From Thermofilum adornatum (GTDB lineage: Archaea; Thermoproteota; Thermoprotei; Thermofilales; Thermofilaceae), in NCBI RefSeq assembly GCF_000446015.1, contig NC_022093.1, positions 1,170,001-1,202,000 on the forward strand: DNA of 32,000 nt, written 5' to 3'. The position numbers and the translations under genes are program-made. Of the stretch, positions 1,777-29,379 are shown piece by piece. How positions within the stretch are numbered: the first letter of the stretch is position 1; every line of letters begins with the position of its first letter. The notes under the pieces were generated by a model. It was not told the origin of the DNA. It saw only the letters and a list, made by a program, of their open reading frames with translations, and did no database searches.

Positions 1777-1777
1777 A

Positions 1778-3128: not shown

Positions 3129-3165
3129 CTTTTTATATATATAGAATCTCAGATATAATTTTATC
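3129..3165 (+). promoter_or_regulatory. Candidate promoter (TATA-like boxes) of the nuoA-N operon
   Basis: The 129-bp AT-rich gap after N-prime contains TTTTTATATATATA (3130-3143) and AGATATAATTTTAT (3151-3164). nuoA itself is preceded by GAGGG (3203-3207), implying a leadered mRNA. Confidence 0.35.
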
Positions 3166-3211
3166 ATGCAAAATCTTTTAAGCATTCTTTAACAGATTTT
3201 AAGAGGGTCTT

Positions 3212-5753: not shown

Positions 5754-5758
5754 GAACT

Positions 5759-8014: not shown

Positions 8015-8016
8015 AA

Positions 8017-9522: not shown

Positions 9523-9524
9523 AC

Positions 9525-11600: not shown

Positions 11601-12970
11601 TGTTGGAAGCCATATACCTCGATATAGCTCTACTAGTACTAACCGCAATAATAGCCCCGTATTTAAGGAAACAGCCGAAGATACTCTATGTCTTAGCATC
11701 ACTCGCCCTAGCTTTCACCTTACTCGTAAGCCTAGAGGAATCATTATCAGGCACAATAGCCACAGGAGAAATGGTCACCGACTGGTTTACCTCCCTCATA
11801 CTAACCATTGTCCTCGCAGACATCCTCGTCGTAATAGCCTCATCATTCCAAGCCCTCAACCTGTCCCCCGAGGGCCCATCCTTTATAGCGACACTACTAT
11901 TAGGCATAACTGGCCTCATAGGCCTCTCCCATGCAGGAACAATACTCATGCTCCTCGTCTCATGGATACTTGTCTCTGTGACAAGCTACGCTATGATTGC
12001 ACTCATGAAAGACAAGTACTCAGCATCTGGAGCAACAAAATACGGGTTAATGAGCCTAGCCTCCTCAATGCTCCTCCTATTATCACTAACCTTCGTAACA
12101 ACACAGGACCCAAAACTATCAATCACTCCGTTAAGTTCTCCACCCATAATAGTGGCGGTAGCTACCCTAGCTTTTTCCGCAGCTGCTTTTGGCTTTAAAG
12201 CTGGAATATTCCCCTTCCATGGCTGGCTACCAGACACCTATGGCATATCAGATCCATACCCAGTAGCAGTGGTGGCTGCAATCTCAAAAGCCGCAGTTAT
12301 ACTTGCATTCTACAAACTCGCAATTCTGATAGCCCCTATCGTTTCGTCCCATTGGCTAACGCTCCTCGGAATACTCTCCGTCCTCACAATGACTTATGGA
12401 AACATAACTGCCCTCCTACAGAAAGGCTTCCAGGGCATCCTTGCCTATAGTAGCATAGCACATGCAGGATACATCCTAATAGGTATCGCGGCGCTCTCCT
12501 TACCGGATCCGCATCTACGGTACCTCGCCATGCTAGGACTACTCATGCAACTAGTAACCTACTCCTTTGCCAAGACCGGCCTCTTTCTGCTAGCAAAACT
12601 AATTAGACAAAAAGAAAGTCCCCCGCTCAAACTTGAACACCTAAACGGCCTATCAAGGGTAGATGGTTCTCTAGCCGCTTCTTCATTAATACTCGTCCTA
12701 AGCCTAATGGGTATGCCCCCACTCGTAGGTTTCTGGGGCAAATTGTTCCTATTCTTCTCTGTCGTGGGGCCAGCTACATGGCTAACCGCTATAGCCCTCA
12801 TCAACACTGGAATCGCCGCCGCTTACTACGCTAGGATAATAAAAGCCATGTACTTCGAGCCAGGAAGTCCAAACCTCTCAAAAGATAGAGGACTCAAAGT
12901 AGCAGTAATTATTTCAGCCATAATCTCACTATTAGCAGGCTTTATACCGATCTTCCTCCCGATACAATAG
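11597..12970 (+). CDS. nuoN: Complex I-like antiporter subunit N (ND2)
   Basis: Motifs FPFHGWLPDTYGISDPYPVAVVAAISKAAV and GILAYSSIAHAGY. ATG 11597 (ATGA overlap with the nuoL stop; SD AGGGTGG at 11585-11591) is preferred over GTG 11588. Confidence 0.85.
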   Translation: MMLEAIYLDIALLVLTAIIAPYLRKQPKILYVLASLALAFTLLVSLEESLSGTIATGEMVTDWFTSLILTIVLADILVVIASSFQALNLSPEGPSFIATLLLGITGLIGLSHAGTILMLLVSWILVSVTSYAMIALMKDKYSASGATKYGLMSLASSMLLLLSLTFVTTQDPKLSITPLSSPPIIVAVATLAFSAAAFGFKAGIFPFHGWLPDTYGISDPYPVAVVAAISKAAVILAFYKLAILIAPIVSSHWLTLLGILSVLTMTYGNITALLQKGFQGILAYSSIAHAGYILIGIAALSLPDPHLRYLAMLGLLMQLVTYSFAKTGLFLLAKLIRQKESPPLKLEHLNGLSRVDGSLAASSLILVLSLMGMPPLVGFWGKLFLFFSVVGPATWLTAIALINTGIAAAYYARIIKAMYFEPGSPNLSKDRGLKVAVIISAIISLLAGFIPIFLPIQ

Positions 12971-13003: not shown

Positions 13004-13018
13004 TTTTTTTCTCTTTTT
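13004..13018 (+). terminator. Oligo-T tract, likely archaeal terminator of the nuo operon
   Basis: T7 (13004-13010) and T5 (13014-13018) lie 34 nt after the nuoN stop. Archaeal RNA polymerase terminates at oligo-T runs. Confidence 0.4.
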
Positions 13019-13058
13019 GAAAAGAAAAACATTTTATTCTACAGCCTTGGAACCCTAT

Positions 13059-14348
13059 ATGCACAGAGAAGAAACAATCGAGGAATTCGAAAAACAATTC
13101 AACGAGTTGAGAAACAAGGGCGTAAAATTCTACGAAGTAGCTGTGCAAGACCTATATGGACACATACGTGGCCGCATACTAAAGCCAGAAAAACCTGAAG
13201 ACGTCCTAAAGGGATACCGCGTAGATGCATACAGCATAGGCTTCTTACCTATAGAAGATTCAGACGCGATGCTTGTTCCCGACCCTACAACACTCAAAGT
13301 CTACAGGACAAGAATGGGTCTTACAGCTTTCCTCATGGGAGATCTCTACAAAGACGGCAAACCATTAGACATTTCTCCGAGGACTCTACTCAGAGAGTTT
13401 TCCCGTTCGAAAAACTACAAGGTCTTGATGGGAGCCGAGCTTGAATTCTACCTGACAAAAAACCATAGACCAATAGACGACGGCTCATACATGTATCTCT
13501 CCCCCTACTCAAACAATTCAGACTTTTTGGCCGAGGTAATCATCCGAGCAGAAGAAGCCGGCGTAGCAATCTCTGCTACACACCACGAAGTGGGACCCAG
13601 CCAATACGAGATTCTCCCAAAAGCACGAACACCTCTCGAGTTGGCAGATGAAGTGGTATTTCTAAAGAAGCTCCTATGGGAAACAGCTTACGAGAAAGGC
13701 TTGGAGGCAACCTTTATGCCTAAACCCTTTAAAGGCTTGCCGGGGAACGGTCTACACATTCACGTCTCCGTTCATAACGGAGAAAGAAATATTGCAATAG
13801 AAGAAGGCGAAATTACTGAAACAGGAAAGAGGGTTGTAGGGGGTCTGCTCTCTTATTCTTCCACATTCGCTCTACTCACCAACCCCACTGTTAACTCCTA
13901 TAAGAGGCTGGCCCCTGGATTCGAGGCTCCAGTCTATATTTCTTGGGGGAGAGGAAACAGGACTACAATGATCCGGCTACCCGTGGGCCTAAAGGGGCTC
14001 TCGGGCACAATCGAGTACCGTCTACCAGACCCCGCTGGAAACATTTATCTCAAGATACTCTCTGTCCTATACTCAACAGTGAAAGGACTAGAAGAAAATC
14101 TAACCCCGCCACCAGAAAGCAATGAAAATGTTTTCGAAAAAAATGGTCTACCAAGAGTCCCTCAAAGCCTGGGAGAAGCAATAAACATTGCACAAAAAAG
14201 CCCAAGTCTTCCTAGAGACCTAAAAAAACTAACAGAGAAAATGGTAGAACTGAAAACAAAGGAATGGGACACATACTCCAGAATAGCTGGAAACCAAAAC
14301 CCTCAGGAGATTACAGACTGGGAAATAAAAGAATATTTTTTCCTGTAA
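13059..14348 (+). CDS. glnA: Glutamine synthetase, type I-like
   Basis: Motifs GAELEFYL, HHEVGPSQYEI, ATFMPKPFKGLPGNGLHIHVS, NSYKRLAPGFEAPVYISWGRGNRTTMIRLP and IEYRLPDPAGNIYL. I prefer ATG 13059 (ATTTTATT box at 13031-13038, about 25 nt upstream). The track's TTG 13017 sits inside the oligo-T terminator. Confidence 0.85.
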   Translation: MHREETIEEFEKQFNELRNKGVKFYEVAVQDLYGHIRGRILKPEKPEDVLKGYRVDAYSIGFLPIEDSDAMLVPDPTTLKVYRTRMGLTAFLMGDLYKDGKPLDISPRTLLREFSRSKNYKVLMGAELEFYLTKNHRPIDDGSYMYLSPYSNNSDFLAEVIIRAEEAGVAISATHHEVGPSQYEILPKARTPLELADEVVFLKKLLWETAYEKGLEATFMPKPFKGLPGNGLHIHVSVHNGERNIAIEEGEITETGKRVVGGLLSYSSTFALLTNPTVNSYKRLAPGFEAPVYISWGRGNRTTMIRLPVGLKGLSGTIEYRLPDPAGNIYLKILSVLYSTVKGLEENLTPPPESNENVFEKNGLPRVPQSLGEAINIAQKSPSLPRDLKKLTEKMVELKTKEWDTYSRIAGNQNPQEITDWEIKEYFFL

Positions 14349-14380: not shown

Positions 14381-14896
14381 CTAGATGAGCCATCCCTTTT
14401 CACGAATAACGTCCAAAAGAAGCTTGAACATGCCGGGCATAGCTTCTGGATCTGTGCCAGTAATGATGTTCCCGTCGCGGACAAACTTTTCGTCAAGCAC
14501 TATTGCTCCAGCGTTACGGAGGTCATCATGTATCGAGAAAAATCCCGTTAGCTTCCTACCCTTAGCGAGGCCAGCAGAAACAAGAACCCAGGGACCGTGA
14601 CAAACCGCCGCCACCACTCCTTTCTCGGCCACTCTCTTAACAAGTTCAAGAATTTCCCTGCTTCTTCTCAGCCTATCAGGAGCATAGCCGCCAGGTATCC
14701 ATAAGACAACATAATCCTCAGCTAATGCACTTCTTGCATCCTTGTTCGCCCTTATGGTTAGCCCGCTCTTTCCTTTGTATTCTCTTGCCTCAGGTCCTAC
14801 GAGGTCTACCTCAAAGCCAAGCTCCATGAGCCTATAAAGTGGGTAAATGAGCTCCCTCTCGTCAAACAAGTCTTCAACCAAAACTGTTGCCTTCAT
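14381..14896 (-). CDS. pfpI: PfpI/DJ-1 family intracellular protease (class I glutamine amidotransferase-like fold)
   Basis: 171 aa. Nucleophile elbow AAVCHGPWVLVSAGL. End-to-end resemblance to Pyrococcus protease I-type proteins (WIPGGYAPDRLR, VRDGNIITG). Confidence 0.85.
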   Translation of the reverse strand: MKATVLVEDLFDERELIYPLYRLMELGFEVDLVGPEAREYKGKSGLTIRANKDARSALAEDYVVLWIPGGYAPDRLRRSREILELVKRVAEKGVVAAVCHGPWVLVSAGLAKGRKLTGFFSIHDDLRNAGAIVLDEKFVRDGNIITGTDPEAMPGMFKLLLDVIREKGWLI

Positions 14897-14982: not shown

Positions 14983-15735
14983 TCATAAGAACTTAATTTT
15001 ACTGAAATACTTCTCGAGATACTGTTTATTTGCCTCGTCGCCCCCGGGTACATTTGCACTCATCCACACTTCAGGTTTAACCCCCATAGATAACAACTTC
15101 TGAACGGTTCTAGCGACAAGAAGCTGTAGTATAAACGAATTGATTATGGTGGAGACCGGCGCCACCTTCTGCTCTAAGCCCTCGAGTTTAAGGTAAGCAT
15201 CACCCTCAGGAACCTTATTATCGATAACAACATCTGCAAGCTCGAAAAGCTTCTTCCCCAAAGGATTGCTTGGGGGCACCCTCTTGCTATACTCAACAGA
15301 AGTAATAGCGACAACCTTCAACCCCCTGCTTTTAGCCTCTGCCGCCATCTCAACAGGAACAGCGTTCTTGCCAGAGTTACTCACAATTACAAGCACAGAA
15401 TTGGGGACAGGCTTAATTGACTCGAGCAAGACCCTGGCATAACCAGAAAGCCTCTCAAGCATAGTACTCTTAAAGGCACCATTAAGACCCGAAATACTCA
15501 AATCAAAAACTGGGTACACACGCACCAAGCCGCCTGCCCGATAAAAAGTCTCAAGAGCCATCATCATCGAGTGCCCCGTACCAAAAACATAGATGAAACC
15601 ATCATTCTTAAGAACTTGGACAAAGAGTTCTATAGCTCTCTCCATGTTCAATTTTTCTTCACGCACTATCCTCTCCTGGAGACTGGCTATTCCAGTCAAA
15701 AACTCTGAATAAATATCGGAAACCATTTTTATCAT
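14983..15735 (-). CDS. SIS (sugar isomerase) domain protein, UPF0309-like
   Basis: 250 aa. Motifs [65 protein letters not shown] and APVSTII match my recollection of the UPF0309 SIS family pattern. Confidence 0.75.
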
Positions 15736-15783
15736 TCTTCATGTTTCACAACATAAATATATTTTTAGATGTTCAAACACACC
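15736..15783. promoter_or_regulatory. Symmetric bidirectional promoter shared by the SIS gene (-) and ptsH (+)
   Basis: The 10-bp perfect palindrome AAATATATTT (15755-15764) is centred at 15759.5. That is exactly midway between the divergent start codons at 15735 and 15784, 24.5 bp from each. It is flanked by ATGTTtcacAACAT (15741-15754) and ATGTTcAAACA (15769-15779). Confidence 0.55.
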
Positions 15784-16056
15784 ATGAAAACCATCGTCCT
15801 CAAAGTTAAAAACAAGAGCGGACTACATGCGAGACCTGCAGCCGTCTTTGTCCAAACAGCAAAAAAATTCACGTCAAAAATAATTGTAAAAAAGGGCGAA
15901 AAAACCGCGGACTCAAAAAACATTCTTCAAATATTATCCCTAGGCATAGACATGGGAGACGAAATAGAACTCCAGGCTGAAGGTCCCGACGAAGAACAAG
16001 CAATAAACGAGTTGAGCAAACTTCTGCTTGAATACCTCCCATCTATAGATCAATAA
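15784..16056 (+). CDS. ptsH: PTS phosphocarrier protein HPr
   Basis: From ATG 15784 the protein is 90 aa with GLHARPA placing the phospho-His at residue 15 (codon 15826-15828). LSLG sits at 51-54. The track's ATG 15769 would add 5 aa and lies immediately next to the TATA element. Confidence 0.9.
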   Translation: MKTIVLKVKNKSGLHARPAAVFVQTAKKFTSKIIVKKGEKTADSKNILQILSLGIDMGDEIELQAEGPDEEQAINELSKLLLEYLPSIDQ

Positions 16057-16067
16057 TTTCATAAAAT

Positions 16068-17813
16068 TCATTCGAAAACCTTGACATCCTTTTTCTTTAA
16101 ATAATTCTGAGACCACTCCTTTATATCTCGAGAGGAATCAGCCTCCTCAATCATTTCTCTAACTTCCTCAGCTAGCTCTGCAAAGTTAATCCTCCTAACA
16201 ACATATTTAACTTTCCCTACAAAGCCCGGAGCTACACTCAGTCCCTTAATACCTAGACCGACAAGAACAGGTATAGCAACACCTCTACTAGCCATTTCGC
16301 CACATACTTCCGTCTCTACCCCCTCACGAATATGGTCAAGGGCGTACGACATAAGCCTCAAAACGGATGGATTAAGTTCATCGTAGACATTGCTTACATA
16401 TGTACTTGTTCTATCTGCCGCTAAAACATACTGGGTTAAATCATTCGTACCAAAGCTAACAAAGCTCAATCTGCCCTTATCTACGAGTTCTCTTACTAGC
16501 AAAGCTGCAGAAGGCACCTCTATCATGACGCCCAAAAGAGGGATCTTAACGTTTTGTCCCTCATTCTCTAGCTTTTCCTTTTCTTCTTCAATGAATCTCC
16601 TAAGCTCCTCAACCTCCTCAACTGTGGAGATCATGGGAAACATAACTCTCAAGTCACCATATACCGACGCCCGCAAAGCCGCACGAACCAGAGGCCTAAG
16701 CATTGAGTCACGATACTTTAACAAAAGACGCGTCCCCCTAAAACCCAACTGGGGATTTGCCTCCCTCGGAATCTCTAAAAACCTTACAGGCTTGTCTCCA
16801 CCAATGTCTGGGGCACGCACAGTTAGAGGACCGCCTCCTAGGAACTCTAAGCTCTTCTTAAAGAGATTAAATAATTCCTCCTCACTAGGGGCTACATCCC
16901 TAGCCATGTAAGCAAACTCAATCCTAAACAACCCAACTCCCCCGCAACCATAGCTCGGAGCTACGCGGACCTCCTCTAGGCTACCAGTATTACACATAAC
17001 AGCTACTTTTACCCCGTCAACTGTTATGGGCTCGAGCTTTTCCTCTCTTGCATACAGAGATACTGTTTCCTTATACTCGGCGACTAGAGACTTGTAATTA
17101 TCAATTAATCTTGGGGAGATATCAACAACTAAATAGCCATTCACACAGTCAAGCACAGCGGTAACGTCATTTCTCAAACTGTTTAAGTCAACCTCTTGAG
17201 AAATCAAATAAGGCACACCCTTCAACCTAGCCAATATAGACACATGCGCCGTCAACCCACCTCTCCGAGTAACTAGGCCCGCTAGCCCACCCTCAACAGC
17301 CTCCAAAAACCTAATGGGATCAATTTCTTCTGCTACAAGAATTCTATCTCTCCAATCAACATCTGTCTTAGCCGCTCCAATAATGCTTGAAACCAGGCGG
17401 GCTGAAATGTCATGCAGATCCTGAGACCTAAGAGCAAAAAGCTCACTACCACTCTTAAGCAACTCTGAATATTTCTCGTAAACCCTCTTTACAGCCGAAG
17501 CGGCGCTGAGAGACAGGTTCCGAATAAGTTCTTCAGCCTCTGACACAAGGGAATCAAGCATAAGTAACTGTGCATCAATAATTTCTTGTTCTGCTTTCGG
17601 GAGAATTCTCTTTAAGTCTTCAAGTCTCTTTTTCACTATTAGGCTTGCCTCGTTTAGAAGCTTTGTTTCTTTATCCACACCGTTGGATTTCGATTCAGAA
17701 ATGCTTTCTAATATATCTTTCTCCTTCAGGACAAAAATCCTTCCAATAGCCACCCCAGGAGACACGATTAGGCCTCTATACCTCGTCTCACTGCTCCTCG
17801 GTAAACTACTCAT
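16068..17813 (-). CDS. ptsI: PTS Enzyme I (phosphoenolpyruvate-protein phosphotransferase)
   Basis: 581 aa. Phospho-His loop GGLTAHVSILARLKGVPY, PEP-binding region FRIEFAYM, plus SFGTNDLTQY and VCGEMASRG. Confidence 0.95.
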   Translation of the reverse strand: MSSLPRSSETRYRGLIVSPGVAIGRIFVLKEKDILESISESKSNGVDKETKLLNEASLIVKKRLEDLKRILPKAEQEIIDAQLLMLDSLVSEAEELIRNLSLSAASAVKRVYEKYSELLKSGSELFALRSQDLHDISARLVSSIIGAAKTDVDWRDRILVAEEIDPIRFLEAVEGGLAGLVTRRGGLTAHVSILARLKGVPYLISQEVDLNSLRNDVTAVLDCVNGYLVVDISPRLIDNYKSLVAEYKETVSLYAREEKLEPITVDGVKVAVMCNTGSLEEVRVAPSYGCGGVGLFRIEFAYMARDVAPSEEELFNLFKKSLEFLGGGPLTVRAPDIGGDKPVRFLEIPREANPQLGFRGTRLLLKYRDSMLRPLVRAALRASVYGDLRVMFPMISTVEEVEELRRFIEEEKEKLENEGQNVKIPLLGVMIEVPSAALLVRELVDKGRLSFVSFGTNDLTQYVLAADRTSTYVSNVYDELNPSVLRLMSYALDHIREGVETEVCGEMASRGVAIPVLVGLGIKGLSVAPGFVGKVKYVVRRINFAELAEEVREMIEEADSSRDIKEWSQNYLKKKDVKVFE

Positions 17814-17922: not shown

Positions 17923-19080
17923 TTGAGAATTCAAGTTAGGAATGCGCATGTTTTGACTCCGCTAGAAGATATCGGCGTGGTTAATATCTCTATAAGGGAT
18001 GGCGTAATTGAGAGTTTCAATGTCCAAGGAACACCGGACAAAATAATAGATGCTGAAAGACAGTATGTCGCCCCAGGATACATCGATACCCATATACACG
18101 GCTATGCAGGCATAGATGTTACGGAGGCTTCGCCAGAAGAAATACTAGAAATGTCACAAAAACTTGCAGGACGTGGAGTGACGGCATTCTTGGCTTCAAC
18201 AGTCGCCGCACCCCACGAGAAACTTGTCCAAGCCTGTAGAAACATTACAAAGGCGGCTGAATCGTGGTCTCCCTCTAAAGGTGCGAGAATTCTTGGACCT
18301 CATCTAGAGGGCCCCTATCTAAATCCCTCCATGAAGGGTGCCATGAATGAAGCATATCTGAGAAAGCCAAGCCTGAAAGAGTTTGAAGACTACTACCTTG
18401 CTTCGAAGGGACTTCTCAGAAAAATAACGGTCGCGCCTGAGCTCGAGGGAGCCATAGATTTCATCAAATCCGTAAAGAGCAGAGGTATAACGGTCAGTTT
18501 GGGGCATTCCCAGGCAACATACGACGAGACCCTTAGAGGAATAGAGGCGGGAGCTACAGTCGCCAACCATATTTTCAACCAGATGAGGCAATTTCACCAC
18601 AGGGAACCAGGCCTCCCATTTGCTCTACTCCTAAACCCTAACACATTTATCGAGATGATTGTAGATTTCATACATCTCCATCCAGCCACTGTTCAACTCG
18701 TATTCAAACTGGCAGGACCCCTACGAACAGTCCTCATAACAGATGCAGTTAGTGCGTCTGGCTTGCCCGATGGCGAGTATGTACTGGGAGGCCTCAAGAT
18801 AACCGTTAAAAATGGCGTTTCAAGGCTGAGTGAAAGCGGGGCCCTGGCCGGAAGCACCTTGACAATGGACAATGCAGTCAAAAATGTGATAAAGGCCGGA
18901 GCAGGCCTTCTAGAGGCACTTACAATGGCTAGCTATACACCCTCTAAGAGCATCGAGGCATTAACACGGGAAAAAATAGGCTACTTAAAGCCCGGATACA
19001 AGGCAGACCTCATTATTCTAGATGAAAAATTAAATGTAAAGAAGACAATTATAAATGGAGAGCTCGTCTACGAGGGATAA
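17923..19080 (+). CDS. nagA: N-acetylglucosamine-6-phosphate (or N-acetylgalactosamine-6-phosphate) deacetylase, NagA/AgaA family
   Basis: 385 aa. Amidohydrolase motifs GYIDTHIHGYAG, HLEGPYLNP, SLGHSQATY, VANHIFNQM and LITDAVSASG. The only in-frame start near the N-terminus is TTG 17923. Confidence 0.85.
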   Translation: MRIQVRNAHVLTPLEDIGVVNISIRDGVIESFNVQGTPDKIIDAERQYVAPGYIDTHIHGYAGIDVTEASPEEILEMSQKLAGRGVTAFLASTVAAPHEKLVQACRNITKAAESWSPSKGARILGPHLEGPYLNPSMKGAMNEAYLRKPSLKEFEDYYLASKGLLRKITVAPELEGAIDFIKSVKSRGITVSLGHSQATYDETLRGIEAGATVANHIFNQMRQFHHREPGLPFALLLNPNTFIEMIVDFIHLHPATVQLVFKLAGPLRTVLITDAVSASGLPDGEYVLGGLKITVKNGVSRLSESGALAGSTLTMDNAVKNVIKAGAGLLEALTMASYTPSKSIEALTREKIGYLKPGYKADLIILDEKLNVKKTIINGELVYEG

Positions 19081-19082
19081 AA

Positions 19083-20912
19083 ATGGGAGGAATATTCGCT
19101 GCTATTTCAAAAAGTTCTGAAAACACTGTTCCCATAGTAATAGAAGGCCTTAGAAGGCTTAAATACAGGGGCGCAGACAACTCGGGAATAGCTGTTCTTC
19201 TAGACGGACGCATAGAGATTTTCAAGGAAGCGGGATCAATAGAGGCAGTTTCAGCGAAACTCGGACTAGAAAACATATCCTCAAGAATAGTCTTGGGACA
19301 CACGCGCTTCGCCACCCATGGACGACCCACTGTTGAAAATGCTCATCCCCACACCGACTGTGAAAGAAGGATTGCTGTCGTCGGAGACGGCTCACTCTCA
19401 AACTATGAAGATTTAAGAGACAAACTGCTGATGGAGGGCCACAAGATTACTTCGAGATCAGACTTTGAGGTAGTTGCACATATATTTGAGTCTCTTCTCA
19501 ACAAAGAATATCAGTCATCAGAGTTCCTGAAGGAGATTTACTCGAAAATGGAAGGATACTTCTCATTTGCAGTTCTGGAGGCAGAAAAACAAAGAATAAT
19601 CGCGACAACAAATGGGCCCAAACTTTTCTACGGGCTGTCAGACAAATACGTTCTCCTTTCCAGTAGCCAATACGCCCTGCACGGCTTTGCAGACCAATAC
19701 GGCGAGCTCTCTCCAGGAGAACTAATAATCCTTTCAAAAGATGGGCCCACCATTTACACCTCAGAAGGCTTAGCGAAACAGGTACAGTCTTTACCGCTCC
19801 AACTCGACCCCATACTCGTCGAGAAAGGCGGCTATAAACATCACATGCTTAGGGAAATAAACGAAGTGCCAGAAGCTCTCCTAAGAACGCTCAGTTCTGT
19901 GCAAAAGAGATATTTGAACCTCGCGGGAAGACTGGTAACAGGAGCCGACAATATCTACATCATAGCAAACGGCACAAGCCTACACGCAGGCATGATAGCC
20001 TCCTACTACTTCTCCGAGCTCGCCGGCATAAGCCCAATAGTGACAAGTGCGGCCGAGTTCCCACTATACTACCTGGAAAACGTCGGGCCAGGAACCCTCG
20101 TCATTGCTATTTCCCAGTCTGGAGAAACTGGAGACGTATTATCATCTCTATACGAGGCAAAACTTAGAGGAGCCACGATTCTTGGAATAACCAACTATGT
20201 TGGCTCGAGGCTCGCTAGGCTCTCCAATCTCTACTTACCAATTGCCGCAGGACCAGAAATAGCCGTTCCAGCCACAAAGACATTCACCTCAACCCTTCAA
20301 GTTCTCTACCTAGTAGCCCTAAGCTCATCAAGACAAAAAGGCAAAATAGAGGAATCCGAGCAAAAAGCGAGGCTTGAAGCTATCAAGAAGCTTGCACAAA
20401 GCCTTGATGAAAGGCTTGCATTCATAGATAGTGAAGCAACAAAAGCCGCAGAAAAAATATCTCTTTGCAGGTCAGGCTATGTAGTTTCAAGAGGATTAAC
20501 ATATCCCCTCGCACTAGAAGGAGCACTAAAACTAAAAGAGGCCTCGTATTTCCACGCCGAGGGTGTCGAAGCAGGAGAATTCAAGCACGGTCCATTCGTC
20601 CTTGTAGAGCAAGGTTTCGCCACGATATTTATTATGCCTGTCGAAAAGGTTTCTGCAGAGGCAACTTTTCCATCGATAGAGATGGCCAGACAAACAGGTG
20701 CAACCGTAGTAGTGATAGGCTCTGAGAACAATCAGAAGTTGCTTGAGCTTTCACAAGACGGCGTAACTACCATACGAGCCGTAGAGACTGAGAGGCACCT
20801 TGCCCCAATATCGCTGGCTGTACCTCTCCAGCTCCTCGCCTATAGACTAGGCGAAAAACTAAACAGGCCCATAGATACTCCTAGGCACCTAGTAAAAGCC
20901 GTTACACAGTAA
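19083..20912 (+). CDS. GlmS-like protein (GATase-II-like N-domain plus two SIS domains) lacking the catalytic N-terminal Cys; possible sugar-phosphate deaminase/isomerase
   Basis: 609 aa, collinear with glutamine-fructose-6-P aminotransferase (GLRRLKYRG, GHTRFATHG, NAHPH, AISQSGETGD, EGALKLKEASYFHAEGVEAGEFKHGP, C-terminal PRHLVKAVTQ). It begins MGGIF instead of MCGI (codon 2 is GGA, 19086-19088). It has VVGDG instead of VHNG (D102, 19386-19388). Confidence 0.85.
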   Translation: MGGIFAAISKSSENTVPIVIEGLRRLKYRGADNSGIAVLLDGRIEIFKEAGSIEAVSAKLGLENISSRIVLGHTRFATHGRPTVENAHPHTDCERRIAVVGDGSLSNYEDLRDKLLMEGHKITSRSDFEVVAHIFESLLNKEYQSSEFLKEIYSKMEGYFSFAVLEAEKQRIIATTNGPKLFYGLSDKYVLLSSSQYALHGFADQYGELSPGELIILSKDGPTIYTSEGLAKQVQSLPLQLDPILVEKGGYKHHMLREINEVPEALLRTLSSVQKRYLNLAGRLVTGADNIYIIANGTSLHAGMIASYYFSELAGISPIVTSAAEFPLYYLENVGPGTLVIAISQSGETGDVLSSLYEAKLRGATILGITNYVGSRLARLSNLYLPIAAGPEIAVPATKTFTSTLQVLYLVALSSSRQKGKIEESEQKARLEAIKKLAQSLDERLAFIDSEATKAAEKISLCRSGYVVSRGLTYPLALEGALKLKEASYFHAEGVEAGEFKHGPFVLVEQGFATIFIMPVEKVSAEATFPSIEMARQTGATVVVIGSENNQKLLELSQDGVTTIRAVETERHLAPISLAVPLQLLAYRLGEKLNRPIDTPRHLVKAVTQ

Positions 20913-20922
20913 GGGGTACAAC

Positions 20923-22158
20923 TTGTTAGAGTTAGCCTTCACAAAGACAACTATAACTCCTCAGCCGGCTCAAGGACACGAGTTGGCTGGCTACATAACC
21001 AGGAGAGAAAAATCGCAGGGAGTACATGACGATATAGAACTCCGAGCACTACTTATTGAAGACGAGTCAGCGGTCTTGCTTGTTAATCTCGACCTTTTAG
21101 GGGTAGACACACATATCAAGGAAACAATTCAAAGAGTAGCAGAAAAGACAATTGGAAATGTCAATGTTATAGTTACTGCTACACATACTCACTCAGCCCC
21201 AGCGACTCTGTTTACAAACCTCTTGCTTACTTTTGGAGACAATGTTTTCCGAAAGGACTACTTCGATTATTTTGTGGAACAAACCGAGAAGACTTTTTCA
21301 AACATAGCTAATAACCTCGAACCAACTGAGACATATATCTATAAAACAAAGATAAGAGATATAGCCACAGACAGAAACGATCCACGAAACCCTATAGACA
21401 ACGAGGCACTTCTGCTAACTTTTGCCTCGAAGGGGGAAACTAAGGGTTTCCTTGTAAATTACGCAGTCCACCCTACAGTATTAGGACCCGACAATTTACT
21501 TATAACTAAGGATCTCATTGAATATATTCTCAAAGGACTTTATTCTGTCCTTAAAACAAATATAGGCCTCTTCCTAAATGGTGCGGCAGGCAATATTTCA
21601 ACAAGGTTTACCAGGAGAGCACAAACATTCAGTGAAGCTGAAAGAATCGGCAATGAATTTGCACGCCAAGTTTTGGTATCGAAATTTAGGCTCCACAATG
21701 TGGAAAATCTTAGAATAGTGTCCAAAGAAATAACTGTTTCTTTCAAAGAATATACCGAGGAGGAAATACGCAAGCTATCGATGCCTACATGGAAAGACGG
21801 AACACGTAGAAGCGAGTCGCTGAGAGAAGGAATAGAAGCTTTAAACAAACTTTATCCAATTATTTCAAAGAAAAGATACACAGCGAAAGCTGAAATAATA
21901 GGTCTAAATCTGGGCGACCTCAAAATGGTATTCGTCCCGTTCGAACTGCATTCAGATATTTCTCTAAGTTTAAAAAAACTGGTGGAGCCTCGATATCTTG
22001 CGCTTGTAGGATATACAAATGAATATTTTGGCTACTTATTGATGAAGGAGGCCGAGCCAGGATACGAAAAAATAATGCAGTTTGTAGATGAGAAAACGCG
22101 TCAACAAGTGTTTTCTGCGATATGTAATGTGCTAGACATCGATCCAGGTTCCCTGTGA
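20923..22158 (+). CDS. Neutral/alkaline ceramidase N-terminal-domain-like hydrolase (uncharacterised amidohydrolase)
   Basis: 411 aa. ITPQPAQGHELAGY, GVHDDIELRALLIED and VTATHTHSAPA resemble the prokaryotic ceramidase-like family pattern. Starts at TTG 20923 with SD AAGGGGT at 20911-20917. Third gene of the nagA unit. Confidence 0.55.
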   Translation: MLELAFTKTTITPQPAQGHELAGYITRREKSQGVHDDIELRALLIEDESAVLLVNLDLLGVDTHIKETIQRVAEKTIGNVNVIVTATHTHSAPATLFTNLLLTFGDNVFRKDYFDYFVEQTEKTFSNIANNLEPTETYIYKTKIRDIATDRNDPRNPIDNEALLLTFASKGETKGFLVNYAVHPTVLGPDNLLITKDLIEYILKGLYSVLKTNIGLFLNGAAGNISTRFTRRAQTFSEAERIGNEFARQVLVSKFRLHNVENLRIVSKEITVSFKEYTEEEIRKLSMPTWKDGTRRSESLREGIEALNKLYPIISKKRYTAKAEIIGLNLGDLKMVFVPFELHSDISLSLKKLVEPRYLALVGYTNEYFGYLLMKEAEPGYEKIMQFVDEKTRQQVFSAICNVLDIDPGSL

Positions 22159-23244
22159 GCTAGAAAGATAAAACGAGTCCAACAACTGCTGGTTTCGAAG
22201 CCCCTCTTTTAAGGTTGGCTGATAGTCCTCCCGTAGACCTGCTAAGTACTCTATAAACTGCTTGTACAAGATAACATAGGAGTAAACCCATCCCTCAAAG
22301 CTCTTTGAAATTGGCCATACTAGGTCTGGATAAATCTCCTCGTAACCTTTTACTATTTTCTCGATGCTTTTACTCTTTCTCTTAAAAACATAAAGATTGT
22401 GAGGCTCATTCAGAAGGAATCTTGCACTCCCCTCACTGCCATAGATCTCTATTCTCATCTGTTCTTCAAAGCCTGGAGACACTTTTGAAGCCTCAATACT
22501 GCCTACTTGTCCCTCGTCATACTCGAGAAGTGCAAAACCAACGTCTTCTGTGTCAACTTTACGCCTTGTACCAGTCGCGGGATCAATTCGCTCACCTATT
22601 AGCGTATAGGCCTTGCCGAAAAGCCTCTTAATGCGTCTGCCTGTGACGTTTTCAGCAAGGTCAAGAACATGCACGCCGATATCTGCAAAAACCCCACCTC
22701 CTGCAATGGCCTTGCTCATTCTCCACTCGAAAGGAGTATCTCTGTAAGCATGCTTTGCATGGGCTATTACACCCCGGAACTCTAGAAAGTCTCCTAGCTC
22801 CCCATTCCTAAGAAGTCCACGCAAGTATTGGATTCCCGGGGTAAACCTCGAAACTAAACATACAGTCACATTTCTGCCTGCTTTAACAGCATAGCGTTCT
22901 ATTTCGCCGGCTTCATGGAGGCTTAGAGCTACAGGCTTCTCCAAGACAACGTTAAACCCTCTTTCTAAAGCTTTCAACGCTAAAGGATAATGCGTATTAT
23001 TTGGTGTAGCAATTGCAACGAGATCTAAATCTACATTGAAAACCTCATCTTCGCTTGTTGTCCACCTTTTGAACCCAAACTGCCTAGCAGTTTCCTCTGC
23101 ATGAGTAGCTGTTCTACTCAAAACAATTTCAAGCTCTATTTCGGGAAAATCTTTCTTTTTAACTATTCTGTTTAGTGAAGAAAGTGTCCATCCTTGTGCC
23201 TGAGCCGACCACCCCGCCCCTATAAGTCCAGCCTTAATCTTCAC
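22132..23244 (-). CDS. Gfo/Idh/MocA family NAD(P)-dependent oxidoreductase
   Basis: 370 aa. N-terminal Rossmann motif KAGLIGAGWSAQ, EKPVALSLHEA motif, and a C-terminal alpha/beta dimerisation-domain pattern. GTG start 13 nt after the EIIB stop. Confidence 0.8.
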   Translation of the reverse strand: MKIKAGLIGAGWSAQAQGWTLSSLNRIVKKKDFPEIELEIVLSRTATHAEETARQFGFKRWTTSEDEVFNVDLDLVAIATPNNTHYPLALKALERGFNVVLEKPVALSLHEAGEIERYAVKAGRNVTVCLVSRFTPGIQYLRGLLRNGELGDFLEFRGVIAHAKHAYRDTPFEWRMSKAIAGGGVFADIGVHVLDLAENVTGRRIKRLFGKAYTLIGERIDPATGTRRKVDTEDVGFALLEYDEGQVGSIEASKVSPGFEEQMRIEIYGSEGSARFLLNEPHNLYVFKRKSKSIEKIVKGYEEIYPDLVWPISKSFEGWVYSYVILYKQFIEYLAGLREDYQPTLKEGLRNQQLLDSFYLSSSQGTWIDV

Positions 23245-23257: not shown

Positions 23258-23761
23258 TTAGAATTTTATACTTCTTATCTTCTCAGCCATATCTAACGGC
23301 TTCGGTGGAAAATCTGGAAGTTGCTGATAATAAAGCTTTATACCCATGTCGAGAAGCTTAAGCAAAGCCTTGTGATCCTCGGGACCAATATCGAATGTTT
23401 TTTCCACCTTGACTCTCCCAGCTCTATAACCCATCTGTCCCAAGAGAACCCACTCAACATTTACTCCAGATTTCTCAATGAAAGCTAGAACATCGACTGG
23501 ATTCTCAAAGAGCATTAATATCTTTAGATTATTATTTACATTCTTGATTTTAATAGCAGCCTCCTCTACCTTCAACACTTCAACAGCAATGCCTGGGGGC
23601 GCAAGCATAACCTGCAACTGCTTCAAGGCAGGATTACTAGCTATCTTATCGTTTACCACCCAAATAGCATTTGCTCCAAATTTCTTTGTCCATGCCGCTG
23701 TTACTTGTCCATGTATAAAACGGTCATCAATACGAATGATAATATTCTGATTGTTTTCCAT
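23258..23761 (-). CDS. PTS mannose/sorbose-family EIIB component
   Basis: IIIRIDDRFIHGQVTAAWTK contains the family's phospho-His motif (RIDDRLIHGQV). ATG 23761 is preferred (SD GGGTG at 23772-23768, 6-nt spacer) over TTG 23764. Confidence 0.9.
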   Translation of the reverse strand: MENNQNIIIRIDDRFIHGQVTAAWTKKFGANAIWVVNDKIASNPALKQLQVMLAPPGIAVEVLKVEEAAIKIKNVNNNLKILMLFENPVDVLAFIEKSGVNVEWVLLGQMGYRAGRVKVEKTFDIGPEDHKALLKLLDMGIKLYYQQLPDFPPKPLDMAEKIRSIKF

Positions 23762-23839
23762 CAATTACACCCAAACTCTTACTCATGTAAGTTTTCATTT
23801 TATCTTTTAAGCTTTTTCTAGGCATCATTAAGACCAGTT

Positions 23840-24244
23840 TTATTTTGAAATTTCAACAAGCTGAGGTCCCACAAAGGCTCTTATTCCCTGCAAGCCCGCG
23901 TCCTTTACTCTAGAAATAAATTCTTGCAGATTACTTCCGAGATCTTCATTCGTGAGGATCTCTATAGCTATTGCCATGTTAAAACCTGTAATGACAGCCT
24001 TAGCCCTTCCCTCTTGGAGCAACATTAATGCGGCCCTACTAGGAGTCCCACCAAACAGATCAGCCAATATTATTGTTTCAGGATCCACTTTACCCGAAAG
24101 CTTCTCATAGTAATTCTCGAGGCTCTCTCCCTCTAAAAGATCTACACAATCAGTCTTCTCTTTGACAGATAAGCCAAGGATCATTGAAACAGCCTCACGC
24201 ATTGCGCACCCAAGGCCTCCATGAGAGGCAAACACTATCCTCAT
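23840..24244 (-). CDS. PTS mannose-family EIIA component
   Basis: N-terminal MRIVFASHGGLG carries the EIIA-Man phospho-His motif. LADLFGGTP follows later. ATG 24244 is preferred (SD GAGGTGA at 24256-24250, 5-nt spacer) over GTG 24253, which overlaps the upstream stop. Confidence 0.85.
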   Translation of the reverse strand: MRIVFASHGGLGCAMREAVSMILGLSVKEKTDCVDLLEGESLENYYEKLSGKVDPETIILADLFGGTPSRAALMLLQEGRAKAVITGFNMAIAIEILTNEDLGSNLQEFISRVKDAGLQGIRAFVGPQLVEISK

Positions 24245-24249
24245 ACCCC

Positions 24250-25137
24250 TCACCTCAAATAAGACATAGCGATACGTCTATAAGTATGTCTAACACCCCT
24301 CACAGCTAAAGAAAGCTCCAAAATATTCTCTGGAAGAGCTACCCTCATCCCATACCCAGAATCCCCAATATGGTGAATATCACAGCCGCATGCCTTCGAG
24401 GTTAAACCGATTTTCCGGATTACACTTCTCTGGGCCCCCTCCTGAGACGTCCCAATTGTACACATAAGTACAGCATCATACCTATAAGCAAGCTTAGCAA
24501 CCGAACTCACATTTTCCGGCAGTGACCATGGAACAGTGTAAGGTGCAGGTATCACTATTCCATCGGCACCCCTAGCTAAAACCTCTTCAATAAGTCTCAA
24601 GTCGTACATCTCTTCTGTTCTCAAGCCTCCACTATGCATCTTTCCACCAAAAACCAAAACTCTATCTCCAGCAATTTTTCTCGCCAATTCTACACCTTTA
24701 GATATCCTACTCCAAGTCACGCCAAGACCTGGATTCCCCGTAACAACTAATAGTTTAGATCCCAAATCAATGCTGGCCTTGACACTCTCCTCGGAAAGAG
24801 TTCTTCCAGCAGGAAGCAATCCAGGATCCACAGGCTCAAGGTTATGGCCGACAAACCTGCCGAGAAATTCAGAAAGCATCGAAAAAGAAGTATAATACTT
24901 TTCAGGAACACCCTCAATCCTGGGATTAAATACATCAATCATGTTCAGAAGAATTACATCCGCACCAAATGACGCCGCCAACTCGACATTGGAGACCCCA
25001 TCTATGAGTGGAGGAGCAGTAACCACGATTTCTGCTGCAATGGTCCTCCCCTCAGAGCTTAGAACAGCTGCCTTAAAATCTTTAGCTAAACATTTTGAGA
25101 GCTCTTTACCAGTCATTTCCAAAACTCTTTTAGCCAC
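24250..25137 (-). CDS. Uncharacterised 295-aa soluble protein, first gene of the EIIA-EIIB-oxidoreductase operon (possibly alpha/beta-barrel enzyme)
   Basis: Intact ORF translationally coupled to EIIA. Alternating hydrophobic-strand and helix pattern (GADVILLNMIDVF, LLVVTGNPG, VLVFGGKMHSGG, GADGIVIPAPY, AVLMCTIGTSQEG). I do not recognise a named family. Confidence 0.6.
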   Translation of the reverse strand: MAKRVLEMTGKELSKCLAKDFKAAVLSSEGRTIAAEIVVTAPPLIDGVSNVELAASFGADVILLNMIDVFNPRIEGVPEKYYTSFSMLSEFLGRFVGHNLEPVDPGLLPAGRTLSEESVKASIDLGSKLLVVTGNPGLGVTWSRISKGVELARKIAGDRVLVFGGKMHSGGLRTEEMYDLRLIEEVLARGADGIVIPAPYTVPWSLPENVSSVAKLAYRYDAVLMCTIGTSQEGAQRSVIRKIGLTSKACGCDIHHIGDSGYGMRVALPENILELSLAVRGVRHTYRRIAMSYLR

Positions 25138-25234: not shown

Positions 25235-26836
25235 ATGACAGCAATTGGACCATTCGAAGTGGGACTTCTAGGACTCCTAGCATTCTTCTTCGGACTAGAC
25301 TACATCTGGGTAACCCCGCTAGGTATCTGGCGCCCCGTAGTAGCCGGCACAATAACAGGCATTCTCCTTGGAGACCCACTAACGGGTCTACTAGTAGGTT
25401 CACTACTCGAATTCGTCTTTGCAGGTCTCTTTACAATCGGTGGAGGCACAGTGCCAGAGGCCGCAACAGGAACAATAGCATCAGTCGTCGTAGCCGTAGT
25501 GACCGGTTTGAAGCCGGAGGCAGCTGTACCACTAGCAATTCCAGTTGCAGTTCTAACGATGAACATAGAAATCGTTGTAAGGTCTTTTGACGCCGTATTC
25601 ACTCACTGGGCCGACCGTGAAATAGAGAGAGGAAACTATGGAATGATACCAATAATAAACATATTGGGTGCAGTTCCCTGGGGTCTTTCCAGAGCCATAC
25701 CTATATGGCTCTTTGTAGGTGCACTAGCAATCAACCCGCCAGCAGTTAAAGCCGCCATAGACGCATTACAAGTAGTATACATAGGGCCATTTGTCATTAA
25801 ATTCTGGGATGCGATGGCTGTTGCTGGAGCAGTTCTACCAGCACTCGGAGCCGCAATCTTAATGAAGCTTATGATTTCTAGAAGAAACGTCATGTTCTTC
25901 ATTCTTGGATTCGCACTGGCCGCCTACCTCAAGCTAAGCCTACTAGCAATAGCACTCATCGCTGGCTCGATAATATTTGCCATCTACTATTTCATACACC
26001 GCGAAACCCTCGAGACACAGCTTTCAACTACAACAGCGCCTCCAGCTGGAAAAGCCACAACAAAAGACTTTATCAGATGGTTTGGCGTTTCATGGTTTAT
26101 TCAGTCCTCCTGGAACTATGAAAGAATGATGGGCACAGGATTTGCACATGGAATGCTAGACATAGAGAAGAAGCTAAGAAAAGACCCAGAAGAACTGAAA
26201 GCCTGGATGAGACTACACAACGAATTCTACAATACTGAGCCACACATTCACAATGCAATATACGGAATGACGATATCATTAGAAGAACAAGGTGCAGACC
26301 CAGACACTATACGAGGCATAAAGACAGCACTAATGGGGCCATTCGCTGGACTAGGAGACTCATTAATATGGTTCACAATCCTCCCAATAGCATTCCTCAT
26401 AGGCGCCTCCCTAGGAGTACATGGAAATATCCTTGGCCCAGTAGTTGCACTCCTCATATGGATACCCGTCTCATGGGCAATCAAATACTATTCCCTCGTC
26501 TATGGATACAAGTATGGTCTATCATTGGCTGAGGTACTAAAGGGAGACGTCCTCAAGATATTCAGGGAAGGAATTGCAGCATTTGCAATGGCAATGGTTG
26601 GAGGCATAGCAGCCACATACGTCAGAGCAACAACACCAATAGTCTTAGCCCAGTACGGTGGCCAGGCCATCAAGCTGCAGCCAGTTCTAGACCAGCTCAT
26701 GCCATCACTGCTCCCACTCCTATTTACACTATATGCCTACTGGCTCATCAAGACAAAAGGCTACAGCTACGGTAAAGCTGTCATTATCCTGTTCCTCACA
26801 GCCTTCGTGCTTGCTTTAATAGGAGTCCTGGGATAA
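25235..26836 (+). CDS. PTS mannose-family EIIC-EIID fusion protein
   Basis: 533 aa. The N-terminal ~255 aa is EIIC-Man-like (IWRPVVAGTITGILLGDPLTGLLVGSLLEF). A Thr/Pro/Ala-rich linker ETQLSTTTAPPAGKATTK follows at nt ~26000-26065. The C-terminal half is EIID-like (SWNYERMMGTGFAHGM, HNEFYNTEPH, ALMGPFAGLGDS). Confidence 0.9.
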   Translation: MTAIGPFEVGLLGLLAFFFGLDYIWVTPLGIWRPVVAGTITGILLGDPLTGLLVGSLLEFVFAGLFTIGGGTVPEAATGTIASVVVAVVTGLKPEAAVPLAIPVAVLTMNIEIVVRSFDAVFTHWADREIERGNYGMIPIINILGAVPWGLSRAIPIWLFVGALAINPPAVKAAIDALQVVYIGPFVIKFWDAMAVAGAVLPALGAAILMKLMISRRNVMFFILGFALAAYLKLSLLAIALIAGSIIFAIYYFIHRETLETQLSTTTAPPAGKATTKDFIRWFGVSWFIQSSWNYERMMGTGFAHGMLDIEKKLRKDPEELKAWMRLHNEFYNTEPHIHNAIYGMTISLEEQGADPDTIRGIKTALMGPFAGLGDSLIWFTILPIAFLIGASLGVHGNILGPVVALLIWIPVSWAIKYYSLVYGYKYGLSLAEVLKGDVLKIFREGIAAFAMAMVGGIAATYVRATTPIVLAQYGGQAIKLQPVLDQLMPSLLPLLFTLYAYWLIKTKGYSYGKAVIILFLTAFVLALIGVLG

Positions 26837-26855: not shown

Positions 26856-27524
26856 TCACTTTGGTTCTCCAAGAATCTTCTGTAAGCCTTCTACGACCCC
26901 CTCACCATAAGGCCTATTAGTCACATAGTCTGCCATCTCTTTCAATTTTTGATCCGCATTAGCAACAGCCACCTTAAAGCGGGCAATCCGAAACATTGGT
27001 ATATCAGACGCGCTATCTCCAATAGCAACCATATTCTTAGCATCCCAGCCAGTTACCTGTAAAAGCCTAGACACCCCGACACCCTTATCAAGCCCCCTTG
27101 GTGCAAAAACATGAGTCCGCGAACCTACCTTCTTCATTTCCACAGAGTATTCACTCTGTTTGTTTAATAATACATGTTGCGCTAGGGAAATATTATCTTG
27201 GTCAAAATAATACAGAACTTCTCCCAGGTTAACCCTGGGGACAACTCTAGAAACCTCTTCGATAAACGTGTTCCACCACTTAGGCCTAAATAAGATCAAA
27301 TCACTTGGCGGGAAGAAGAGAACACTGCCAAGCTCAAGAACCAAGGCATCAAACAAACTCGCTTCAACGAATCTCTCAATGTCGCTTAAAGGTCTGGCCG
27401 TAGCTAGAATTAGCTTAAAACCATGCTTTTGTTTTAGAGTCATGACCGACTGGGCCACTTCGTATCTAACAGGATGATTCTCCTCAGCCAGAGTTCCATC
27501 ATAGTCAACAACTATCAACAACAT
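26856..27524 (-). CDS. HAD-superfamily subfamily IIB (Cof-type) sugar-phosphate phosphatase
   Basis: 222 aa. Motif I VVDYDGTL, motif II ILATARP and motif IV AIGDSASD, with a cap-domain-sized insertion. Confidence 0.8.
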   Translation of the reverse strand: MLLIVVDYDGTLAEENHPVRYEVAQSVMTLKQKHGFKLILATARPLSDIERFVEASLFDALVLELGSVLFFPPSDLILFRPKWWNTFIEEVSRVVPRVNLGEVLYYFDQDNISLAQHVLLNKQSEYSVEMKKVGSRTHVFAPRGLDKGVGVSRLLQVTGWDAKNMVAIGDSASDIPMFRIARFKVAVANADQKLKEMADYVTNRPYGEGVVEGLQKILGEPK

Positions 27525-29058: not shown

Positions 29059-29379
29059 TTATTTTTTCTCTATCCATCCAGCATCAAGTAGTGCTTTTGT
29101 TATCTTTTCTCTCATCTCTTTTTTATCCACGAGACTCTTTAATCCTACAATTATTTTTGCCGAGCCTTTTAATTCGGGTTCATGTATTATAGAGCAAACG
29201 ATAATATCGGCGCCTCCGGCTTTTGCAGTCAATATTTCTGTTGGTTCAACCTTTGCAGGAATACCGAGTTCCTTAAATACATCATCTACGAACATTTTCA
29301 TGATCAAGGAACTTCCCTGCCCAACACCACATACAGTGAGAACTTTTAATTCTCTTCCTAAAATGTAGCTATAAGTCAT
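29059..29379 (-). CDS. PTS ascorbate/lactose-type EIIB (UlaB/SgaB-like)
   Basis: 106 aa. KVLTVCGVGQGSSLIMKM carries the phospho-Cys P-loop motif (CGxGxGSS). Confidence 0.85.
   Translation of the reverse strand: MTYSYILGRELKVLTVCGVGQGSSLIMKMFVDDVFKELGIPAKVEPTEILTAKAGGADIIVCSIIHEPELKGSAKIIVGLKSLVDKKEMREKITKALLDAGWIEKK

Follow-up and report, generated by a model that had tools for sequence, protein, structure and literature searches.

What does a protein of the GlmS family do once it has lost the residue with which GlmS attacks glutamine? The question is raised by a gene of the archaeon Thermofilum adornatum, located at 19083..20912 on the plus strand of a stretch of 32,000 nucleotides (positions 1,170,001 to 1,202,000 of contig NC_022093.1; hereafter the window, to which coordinates refer unless another contig is named). 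Its product, a GlmS-like protein of 609 amino acids that we place in an 'MGG' clade, scores 508.6 bits against the TIGR01135 model of GlmS (cutoff 418.05) with both domains present, which bears out the claim of an earlier note on this DNA that the open reading frame (ORF) is collinear with full-length GlmS. In GlmS, Cys1 is the nucleophile of the glutaminase reaction and Asn98 helps to form the oxyanion hole, while the isomerase site interconverts fructose-6-phosphate (Fru-6-P) and glucosamine-6-phosphate (GlcN-6-P) through an imine with Lys603. The Thermofilum protein is a member of the family by its architecture, fold and model score, yet it fails the two defining catalytic features of the glutaminase half. 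We consider it reasonably likely that it is a GlmS-derived, glutamine-independent amino-sugar-6-phosphate deaminase/isomerase that serves as the NagB analogue of these archaea. The analysis shows its sequence features, their conservation across the clade, its fold and the genes that surround it; from these we infer below its substrate, the direction of its reaction and the role of its N-terminal domain.

A GlmS-like protein with glycine in the place of the catalytic cysteine

The reading frame opens with the codons ATG GGA GGA, which give the N-terminus MGGIFA where MCGI would stand in an active GlmS, and the codon GGA at 19086..19088 on the plus strand specifies Gly2 in the place of the nucleophile Cys1, the residue that follows the initiator methionine in GlmS. 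The ORF listing contains no in-frame start 5' of this ATG. This codon is preceded, at a distance of 8 nt, by a GAGGG motif and is separated by only 2 nt from the TAA stop codon (19078-19080) of nagA, the gene of N-acetylglucosamine-6-phosphate deacetylase (17923..19080, plus strand; 299.7 bits against TIGR00221, cutoff 225.65). The identical 609-aa protein has been called on 21 contigs from independent assemblies, among them CP007493.1 at ~369.7-371.5 kb. Together with the clade-wide glycine described below, this means that Gly2 is due neither to chance nor to a sequencing error; a mis-called start is likewise ruled out, as no upstream start exists and the homologues all carry Gly. The earlier note was therefore right about the start, the missing upstream alternative and the soundness of the codon, and also in placing the gene in a catabolic-type operon, which is led by nagA and lies inside a cluster of genes for a phosphotransferase system (PTS).

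Residue equivalences were taken from a HMMER alignment to E. coli GlmS (PDB 2j6h), to which the Thermofilum protein is 33% identical. Besides the replacement of Cys1 by Gly2, Trp74 is replaced by F76, and the oxyanion-hole triplet His97-Asn98-Gly99 reads G101-D102-G103, with Asp102 encoded by GAC at 19386..19388 (plus strand). Other residues of the N-terminal domain are kept: Arg26 corresponds to R29, Arg73 to R75, Thr76/His77 to T78/H79 and Asp123 to D127. In the isomerase half, Lys485 is retained as K483, Glu488 as E486, His504 as H502 and the Schiff-base residue Lys603 as Lys605 (codon AAA at 20895..20897, plus strand), along with S344, Q345, S346 and T349. All residues examined there (S347, Q348, S349, T352, K485, E488, H504 and K603 in GlmS numbering) thus have their counterparts, set in the motifs SQSGETGD (aa 344-351), EGALKLKE (479-486), FKHGP (500-504) and LVKAVTQ, the last of which includes K605. 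The alignment agrees with the earlier note on the motifs, on the change of HNG to GDG and of Trp74 to Phe, and on the retained Arg26, Arg73, Thr76, His77 and Asp123. Since Cys1 and Asn98 are both replaced, glutamine cannot serve as the nitrogen donor, and the protein, judged by its sequence, can no longer hydrolyse this amino acid, as the note had argued from the missing Cys1 alone; the absence of nucleophile and oxyanion-hole Asn throughout the clade, next to an invariant isomerase site, supports that view.

The architecture as such is that of GlmS/GFAT (EC 2.6.1.16; TIGR01135; PDB 2j6h, 1jxa), with the same two domains, the same length and the same fold of both. Pfam detects GATase_6/7 and SIS, corresponding to a class-II amidotransferase fold of the N-terminal nucleophile (Ntn) type at aa 1-~240 and to two SIS domains at aa ~250-609, in line with the Ntn domain, two SIS domains and ~600 aa of the family. 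An AlphaFold2 model based on 26 sequences of the clade has high confidence over its whole length (pLDDT 92.6, pTM 0.93). Foldseek searches returned E. coli GlmS and human GFAT as the top PDB matches, with a TM-score of ~0.9 for the isomerase domain; the C1A mutant of E. coli GlmS (PDB 3ooj), in which the nucleophile was removed by engineering, is also among the top structural matches. In the model, the N-terminal domain is a folded module with a remodelled pocket that comprises Gly1, Asp98 and Tyr/Phe74 (GlmS numbering) and retains Arg73 and Asp123.

The Gly1 clade and its conserved residues

Among the best 120 homologues 116 are full-length, and every one of the 116 has Gly-Gly at the position of Cys-Gly. 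These 116 are 43-98% identical to the query, and the names attached to them are Thermofilum, Infirmifilum, Ignisphaera, Sulfolobales, Thermosphaera and Acidianus. A second search added Saccharolobus, Sulfurisphaera, Stygiolobus, Staphylothermus, Thermoproteus, Acidilobaceae and others. The full-length homologues collected in total comprise 209 with Gly-Gly and one with Gly-Ala, which answers the survey of orthologues proposed in the earlier note. Wherever the sources name the organism, the clade is confined to Thermoprotei. When 1.84 billion representatives were searched exhaustively, those of the clade scored 392-675 bits, and canonical MCGI sequences 387 bits at most. In a neighbour-joining tree of 96 clade members, mutually <75% identical, and 63 other sequences, the clade forms a single bipartition in 30 of 30 bootstraps. 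A literature search, which misses most subscription journals, found no description of it.

Positions were regarded as separating the clade from canonical GlmS if one residue occupies at least 90% of the clade and another at least 85% of the canonical sequences. Position 1 is Gly in 95 of the 96 non-redundant members and Cys in all 60 canonical sequences; position 98 is Asp in 94 of 96 and Asn in 60 of 60. The replacement of A400 by P and three more positions in the isomerase domain also belong to this set, and the position of Trp74 is always Tyr or Phe in the clade. The isomerase site, on the other hand, is intact: across 118 homologues there is no variation at S347, Q348, S349, K485, E488, H504 or K603, and 117 of them have T352. 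As compared with canonical GlmS, then, the clade has fixed Cys1→Gly, Asn98→Asp, Trp74→Tyr/Phe and Ala400→Pro and has nagA or PTS genes as its genomic partner, whereas the isomerase residues, the C-terminal tail, R26, R73, G99 and D123 are common to E. coli GlmS and the Thermofilum protein. Unlike the loss in the 3ooj laboratory mutant, that of the clade is natural and ancient and is accompanied by the compensating changes N98D, W74Y/F and A400P.

The N-terminal domain has not been left to drift. Mean pairwise identity within the clade is 0.38 for this domain and 0.51 for the isomerase half, against 0.43 and 0.43 in canonical GlmS; the domain is thus relatively relaxed but far from decaying. 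In the former glutamine site R73, G99 and D123 are invariant, while some parts of the clade are less strict about H77 and H86. Because the residues that anchor the amino acid are kept and a fixed Asp98 lies by the free N-terminal amine, this pattern suggests that the domain still binds some ligand, and it probably has a structural or ligand-sensing role and no catalytic one. The earlier note had regarded the domain as dead and possibly kept as a regulatory or structural module; the second part agrees with a domain that is folded and kept, but 'dead' is too simple a word where the glutamine-anchoring residues and Asp98 are fixed.

The same residues could be taken as signs of a glutamine amidotransferase that persists by an unconventional mechanism, for instance with a water molecule activated by Asp98 and assisted by the α-amine of Gly1: R73, D123 and T/S76 are retained, Asp98 is invariant, and after removal of the initiator methionine the N-terminal amine would be positioned as in the Cys1 enzymes. 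We regard this as highly improbable, because the glutaminase is routinely inactivated by substituting Cys1 (as in the C1A mutant 3ooj), H77 and H86 are relaxed, and we know of no Ntn amidotransferase that works without a side-chain nucleophile. Nor does Cys93, although invariant in the clade, offer a relocated nucleophile: it was considered for this role and ruled out, since it is common in canonical GlmS as well (46 of 60 sequences).

A different use of the domain is conceivable, though we hold it to be doubtful: through the fixed Gly1, Asp98 and Tyr/Phe74 and the retained Arg73 and Asp123, it may have been repurposed either as an ammonium-capturing site that feeds the conserved intramolecular channel or as a sensor of glutamine or glutamate by which nitrogen status would control a reversible deaminase/synthase. 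Either version, if true, would be a new way of reusing an Ntn amidotransferase domain, and ammonium capture would in addition yield a glutamine-independent GlcN-6-P synthase, possibly the sole one in some Thermoprotei. In any case the clade amounts to a natural experiment, in which an Ntn domain lost its nucleophile long ago and has nevertheless stayed under selection, and it is well suited to studies of what functions, other than glutamine hydrolysis, a domain of this type can have.

A few sequences depart from these patterns. P0158, a divergent metagenomic member of the Gly1 clade, carries K485→I, H504→Y, Q348→P, T352→D and R26→L, and may have yet another function. Odd N-termini were also seen in three otherwise canonical GlmS sequences, namely P0257 (MSGIFG, with Ser for Cys1), P0141 (VCRIF, Gly2→Arg) and P0209 (MCSII, Gly2→Ser), all of which have N98 and W74 intact.

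Gene neighbourhoods and the predicted reaction

In the window, the GlmS-like gene is the second of a plus-strand run of three genes (17923-22158) that begins with nagA and ends with a ceramidase-like gene, with gaps of 2 nt and 10 nt, and the run sits inside a complete mannose-family PTS cluster. HPr is encoded at 15769..16056 on the plus strand (PF00381) and Enzyme I (EI) at 16068..17813 on the minus strand, divergently from nagA (TIGR01417, 416 bits, cutoff 341.7). EIIB (23258..23764) and EIIA (23840..24253) are both on the minus strand, and a fused EIIC-EIID of 533 aa is encoded at 25235..26836 on the plus strand; such a fusion is also present in Infirmifilum and in one metagenome-assembled genome (MAG) of Thermoprotei. 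Background knowledge makes the company of nagA informative: nagA typically pairs with nagB and not with glmS, the usual partner of bacterial glmS is glmU, and the isomerase scaffold of GlmS is known to serve the SIS-only proteins GlmD and NagB-II as a GlcN-6-P deaminase.

The association recurs in other archaea. Infirmifilum has the same cluster as the window, with nagA co-directional (the gap is 2-3 nt in Thermofilum and Infirmifilum). A 34-nt spacer separates the GlmS-like gene from a divergent nagA in Acidianus brierleyi and Sulfurisphaera tokodaii, the neighbours in Acidianus including GH116, GH31, PIG-L and MupG-like genes. In Staphylothermus marinus nagA is convergent, with a ROK kinase, a GH130 enzyme and an Asparaginase_2 protein nearby. 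The neighbouring amidohydrolases of these lineages all exceed the cutoff of the nagA model. In one Thermoprotei MAG the order HPr-EIICD-EIIB-EIIA-EI is directly followed by the GlmS-like gene, without nagA, and in Thermoproteus the adjoining gene is a divergent BadF-type kinase, whose best match is a GlcNAc (N-acetylglucosamine) kinase model at 78 bits, below its cutoff of 370. Altogether, there are five different ways in which nagA is placed beside the GlmS-like gene. A further 66 loci came from scanning metagenomes for [VA]GDGx[IL]xNYE, a motif specific to the clade, and removal of redundancy at 85% identity left 41 loci with 646 kb in total. In 12 of these 41, nagA lies within 10 kb, against ~0.4 expected by chance if each genome of ~1.8 Mb has a single copy; 16 of the loci carry an amino-sugar gene, a PTS gene or both. 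Of the Pfam families represented in the 201 genes up to three positions away on either side, Amidohydro_1 occurs most often. Classical NagB (PF01182) is absent from the gene tables of all loci examined, and neither it nor a tagatose-pathway gene is present in the window.

We favour the NagB-analogue reading because nagA recurs in five arrangements, PTS and kinase genes recur too, and the isomerase site is intact. According to the scheme we propose, the PTS, made up of EI, HPr, EIIA, EIIB and the fused EIICD, would import an N-acetyl-hexosamine and phosphorylate it at position 6, and NagA would then remove the acetyl group. The GlmS-like enzyme would open the ring with His502, handle the imine at C2 via Lys605 and Glu486, and convert GlcN-6-P and water to Fru-6-P and NH4+, with Fru-6-P passing to glycolysis. 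The interconversion of GlcN-6-P and Fru-6-P is reversible in principle. The earlier note had suggested the reverse, deaminating reaction from the adjacency of nagA, and the recurrence of nagA and other amino-sugar genes in unrelated arrangements, as would be expected of a NagB-like deaminase, lends support to this suggestion.

The nearest precedents are GlmD (of the Thermococcus kodakarensis type; PH0510/2dec, 2cb0) and NagB-II (Shewanella SO3506; 8eol), SIS-only GlcN-6-P deaminases that sit in amino-sugar catabolic clusters and catalyse the reaction proposed here. The isomerase half of the Thermofilum protein is homologous to NagB-II 8eol (E 3.4e-25) and to the GlmD-related 2dec (E 2.3e-10), and it shares with both families the genomic association with nagA, transport and kinase genes. 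GlmD and NagB-II, however, have ~330 aa and lack the N-terminal domain, whereas the Thermofilum protein has one of 240 aa and branches inside the GlmS family proper. It therefore probably works like GlmD/NagB-II, but from outside those families. If it is a deaminase, it would supply the NagB-type step in amino-sugar and PTS clusters among which, as far as examined, there is no classical NagB, and it would represent a third independent route to this step, after NagB and the SIS-only GlmD/NagB-II.

Several observations weigh against a deaminase. The scores for the established SIS-only enzymes are far below the curated cutoffs (NagB-II 130.2 versus 430, GlmD 55.2 versus 580 bits). The N-terminal domain (0.38 identity, with R73, G99 and D123 invariant) is better conserved than it would have to be as a passive scaffold. 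Models of the N-acetylgalactosamine/galactosamine (GalNAc/GalN) type match the PTS components slightly better than those of the mannose type do. Finally, 25 of the 41 non-redundant loci have no amino-sugar or PTS gene in the stretch fetched, and many of these, mostly Desulfurococcales-like, show a conserved, lineage-specific housekeeping synteny, with neighbours such as tyrosyl- or tryptophanyl-tRNA synthetase (TyrRS/TrpRS), orotidine monophosphate decarboxylase plus 5-formyltetrahydrofolate cyclo-ligase, or PolB plus an Obg-like GTPase. By itself, this synteny speaks neither for nor against a catabolic role, and it would also fit a biosynthetic housekeeping enzyme.

The last point leads to the main rival explanation, an ammonia-dependent GlcN-6-P synthase, which would take up NH4+ at the remodelled pocket of the N-terminal domain (Asp98 and the amine of Gly1) or at the isomerase site and would replace the glutamine-dependent GlmS in some lineages. 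Besides the housekeeping synteny at many loci, it could account for a GlmU-like nucleotidyltransferase 2.3 kb away in Caldivirga and for the conserved N-terminal domain, C-tail and glutamine-anchoring residues with the fixed acidic residue at position 98; no canonical GlmS turned up in these genomes, though no proper search was made. We nevertheless consider such a synthase unlikely, as the association with nagA, PTS and kinase genes is typical of catabolism, at least one genome has a canonical GlmS besides its clade member, and S. tokodaii reportedly has a separate active GlmS, ST2186 (see below). E. coli GlmS is known to use free ammonia poorly.

The PTS scores raise the question of the sugar series. 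The best models for EIIA, EIIC and EIID are of the GalNAc/GalN type (AgaF 65, AgaW 137, GalN IID 182 bits), and NagA and AgaA cannot be distinguished by the models used, so that the protein might act on galactosamine derivatives, either as a galactosamine-6-phosphate (GalN-6-P) deaminase/isomerase like AgaS, yielding tagatose-6-phosphate, or as a GlcN-6-P/GalN-6-P 4-epimerase. All these PTS scores, however, are below the respective cutoffs and only marginally above those of the mannose-type models, there is no tagatose-6-phosphate kinase or tagatose-bisphosphate aldolase in the window or in related loci, and at its sugar-binding residues the protein does not differ from GlmS. The 4-epimerase variant calls to mind S. 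tokodaii, in which the product of ST2245 is reportedly a GlcN-6-P 4-epimerase and a separate active GlmS, ST2186, is said to exist. The clade member of this organism, BAK54820.1, is encoded at 2,553,847-2,555,592 of 2,694,756 bp; if ST numbers follow coordinates, it would be approximately ST2680 and distinct from both ST2186 and ST2245, so that its position (2.554 of 2.695 Mb) would not fit the reported epimerase. Taken together, this makes a galactosamine-series enzyme a rather improbable alternative.

Mannose-family PTS systems of bacteria are also known to carry fructoselysine and glucoselysine, and the earlier note accordingly offered a fructosamine-6-phosphate deglycase of the FrlB/GfrE type, serving a PTS for glycated amino acids, as its alternative. 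FrlB is homologous to the isomerase domain of GlmS, and the protein does match the FrlB model (PRK11382), but only at 47.3 bits against a cutoff of 430, compared with 508 bits for the GlmS model, and its recurrent partner NagA has no role in fructosamine catabolism. AgaS and FrlB/GfrE, relatives of the GlmS isomerase domain that serve mannose-family PTS systems, are moreover SIS-only, and the partner gene in Thermofilum is nagA, without tagatose-pathway genes. The deglycase has thus become a very weak candidate, and deamination of an amino-sugar-6-phosphate continues to be the reading we prefer.

Paralogues, annotation and other genes of the window

The earlier note had called the protein a GlmS paralogue. 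Another archaeon does carry both types on one contig: in the archaeal MAG contig JBMXEB010000013.1 the clade member P0122 and the canonical MCGI GlmS P0125 are ~55 kb apart. The label is to that extent justified for the clade, the evidence being from this archaeon and not from Thermofilum itself. To look for a canonical GlmS in Thermofilum and other Thermoprotei, the closest canonical sequence, P0124, was used as the query of a protein search, in which it matched only generic GlmS of bacteria and archaea; a contig scan with motifs common to all GlmS gave, among the matches listed, almost only bacterial loci.

In NCBI, JGI and UniRef the clade proteins are named glutamine--fructose-6-phosphate transaminase (isomerizing), because they pass the TIGR01135 equivalog model (508 versus 418 bits). 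This is a systematic misannotation, as the clade lacks the residue required for the named reaction, and metabolic reconstructions consequently ascribe to these Thermoprotei a capacity for making amino sugars de novo that the gene probably does not confer.

Beyond the genes discussed so far, the window contains a candidate N-deacylase in the same operon as the GlmS-like gene (20923..22158, plus strand), which corresponds to the N-terminal catalytic part only of neutral ceramidase. It is followed on the minus strand by a Gfo/Idh/MocA sugar oxidoreductase (22132..23244; best match levoglucosan dehydrogenase, 166 bits, below cutoff). The combination of a ceramidase-like gene directly 3' of the GlmS-like gene and a nearby gene for a Gfo/Idh/MocA oxidoreductase occurs in four non-redundant lineages, and this set looks like a conserved module for the catabolism of amino-sugar glycans. 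The loci concerned include L010, L123:3607-7616 and L134:11558-15654; in L123 and L134 genes for a GHL10 glycosidase-like and a xylose-isomerase-like TIM-barrel protein lie in between, and an M14 peptidase is encoded upstream. The minus-strand operon of EIIA, EIIB and the oxidoreductase starts with a gene for a DUF7916 protein (24250..25137; PF25509, 338 bits), which overlaps the EIIA gene by 4 nt; a sequence search found no PDB relative of this protein, and a single-sequence AlphaFold2 model reached a pLDDT of only 39. A HAD phosphatase is encoded at 26856..27524 on the minus strand.

A second PTS, of the ascorbate/galactitol type, consists of EIIC-GAT (27752-29041, plus strand), IIB (29059-29379, minus strand) and EIIA_2 (29450-29914, plus strand), and is adjoined by a gene for a 243-aa protein with a phosphoribosyltransferase domain (29965-30696, minus strand), which may be a regulator. 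The left part of the window (109-12970, plus strand) is filled by a long run of genes for complex-I-like membrane and NuoA-D, H-K subunits, including several antiporter-like subunits, followed by a glutamine synthetase whose N-domain match is weak (13017-14348, plus strand) and a DJ-1/PfpI protein (14381-14896, minus strand), all of them ordinary-looking. On amino-sugar metabolism and PTS, the T. adornatum paper states only that the organism does not use chitin or chitosan and requires culture filtrate of other archaea.

The SIS_2/UPF0309 protein encoded at 14983..15735 on the minus strand matches PDB 9eol (E 6.9e-40) and is a homologue of NagS (SCO4393), the GlcNAc-6-phosphate dehydratase of Streptomyces, whose reaction has been described as limited to Streptomycetaceae (PMC12680351). 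Archaeal homologues of NagS are found beside EI, nagA and the GlmS-like gene in four non-redundant loci, L104, L110 and L125 among them.

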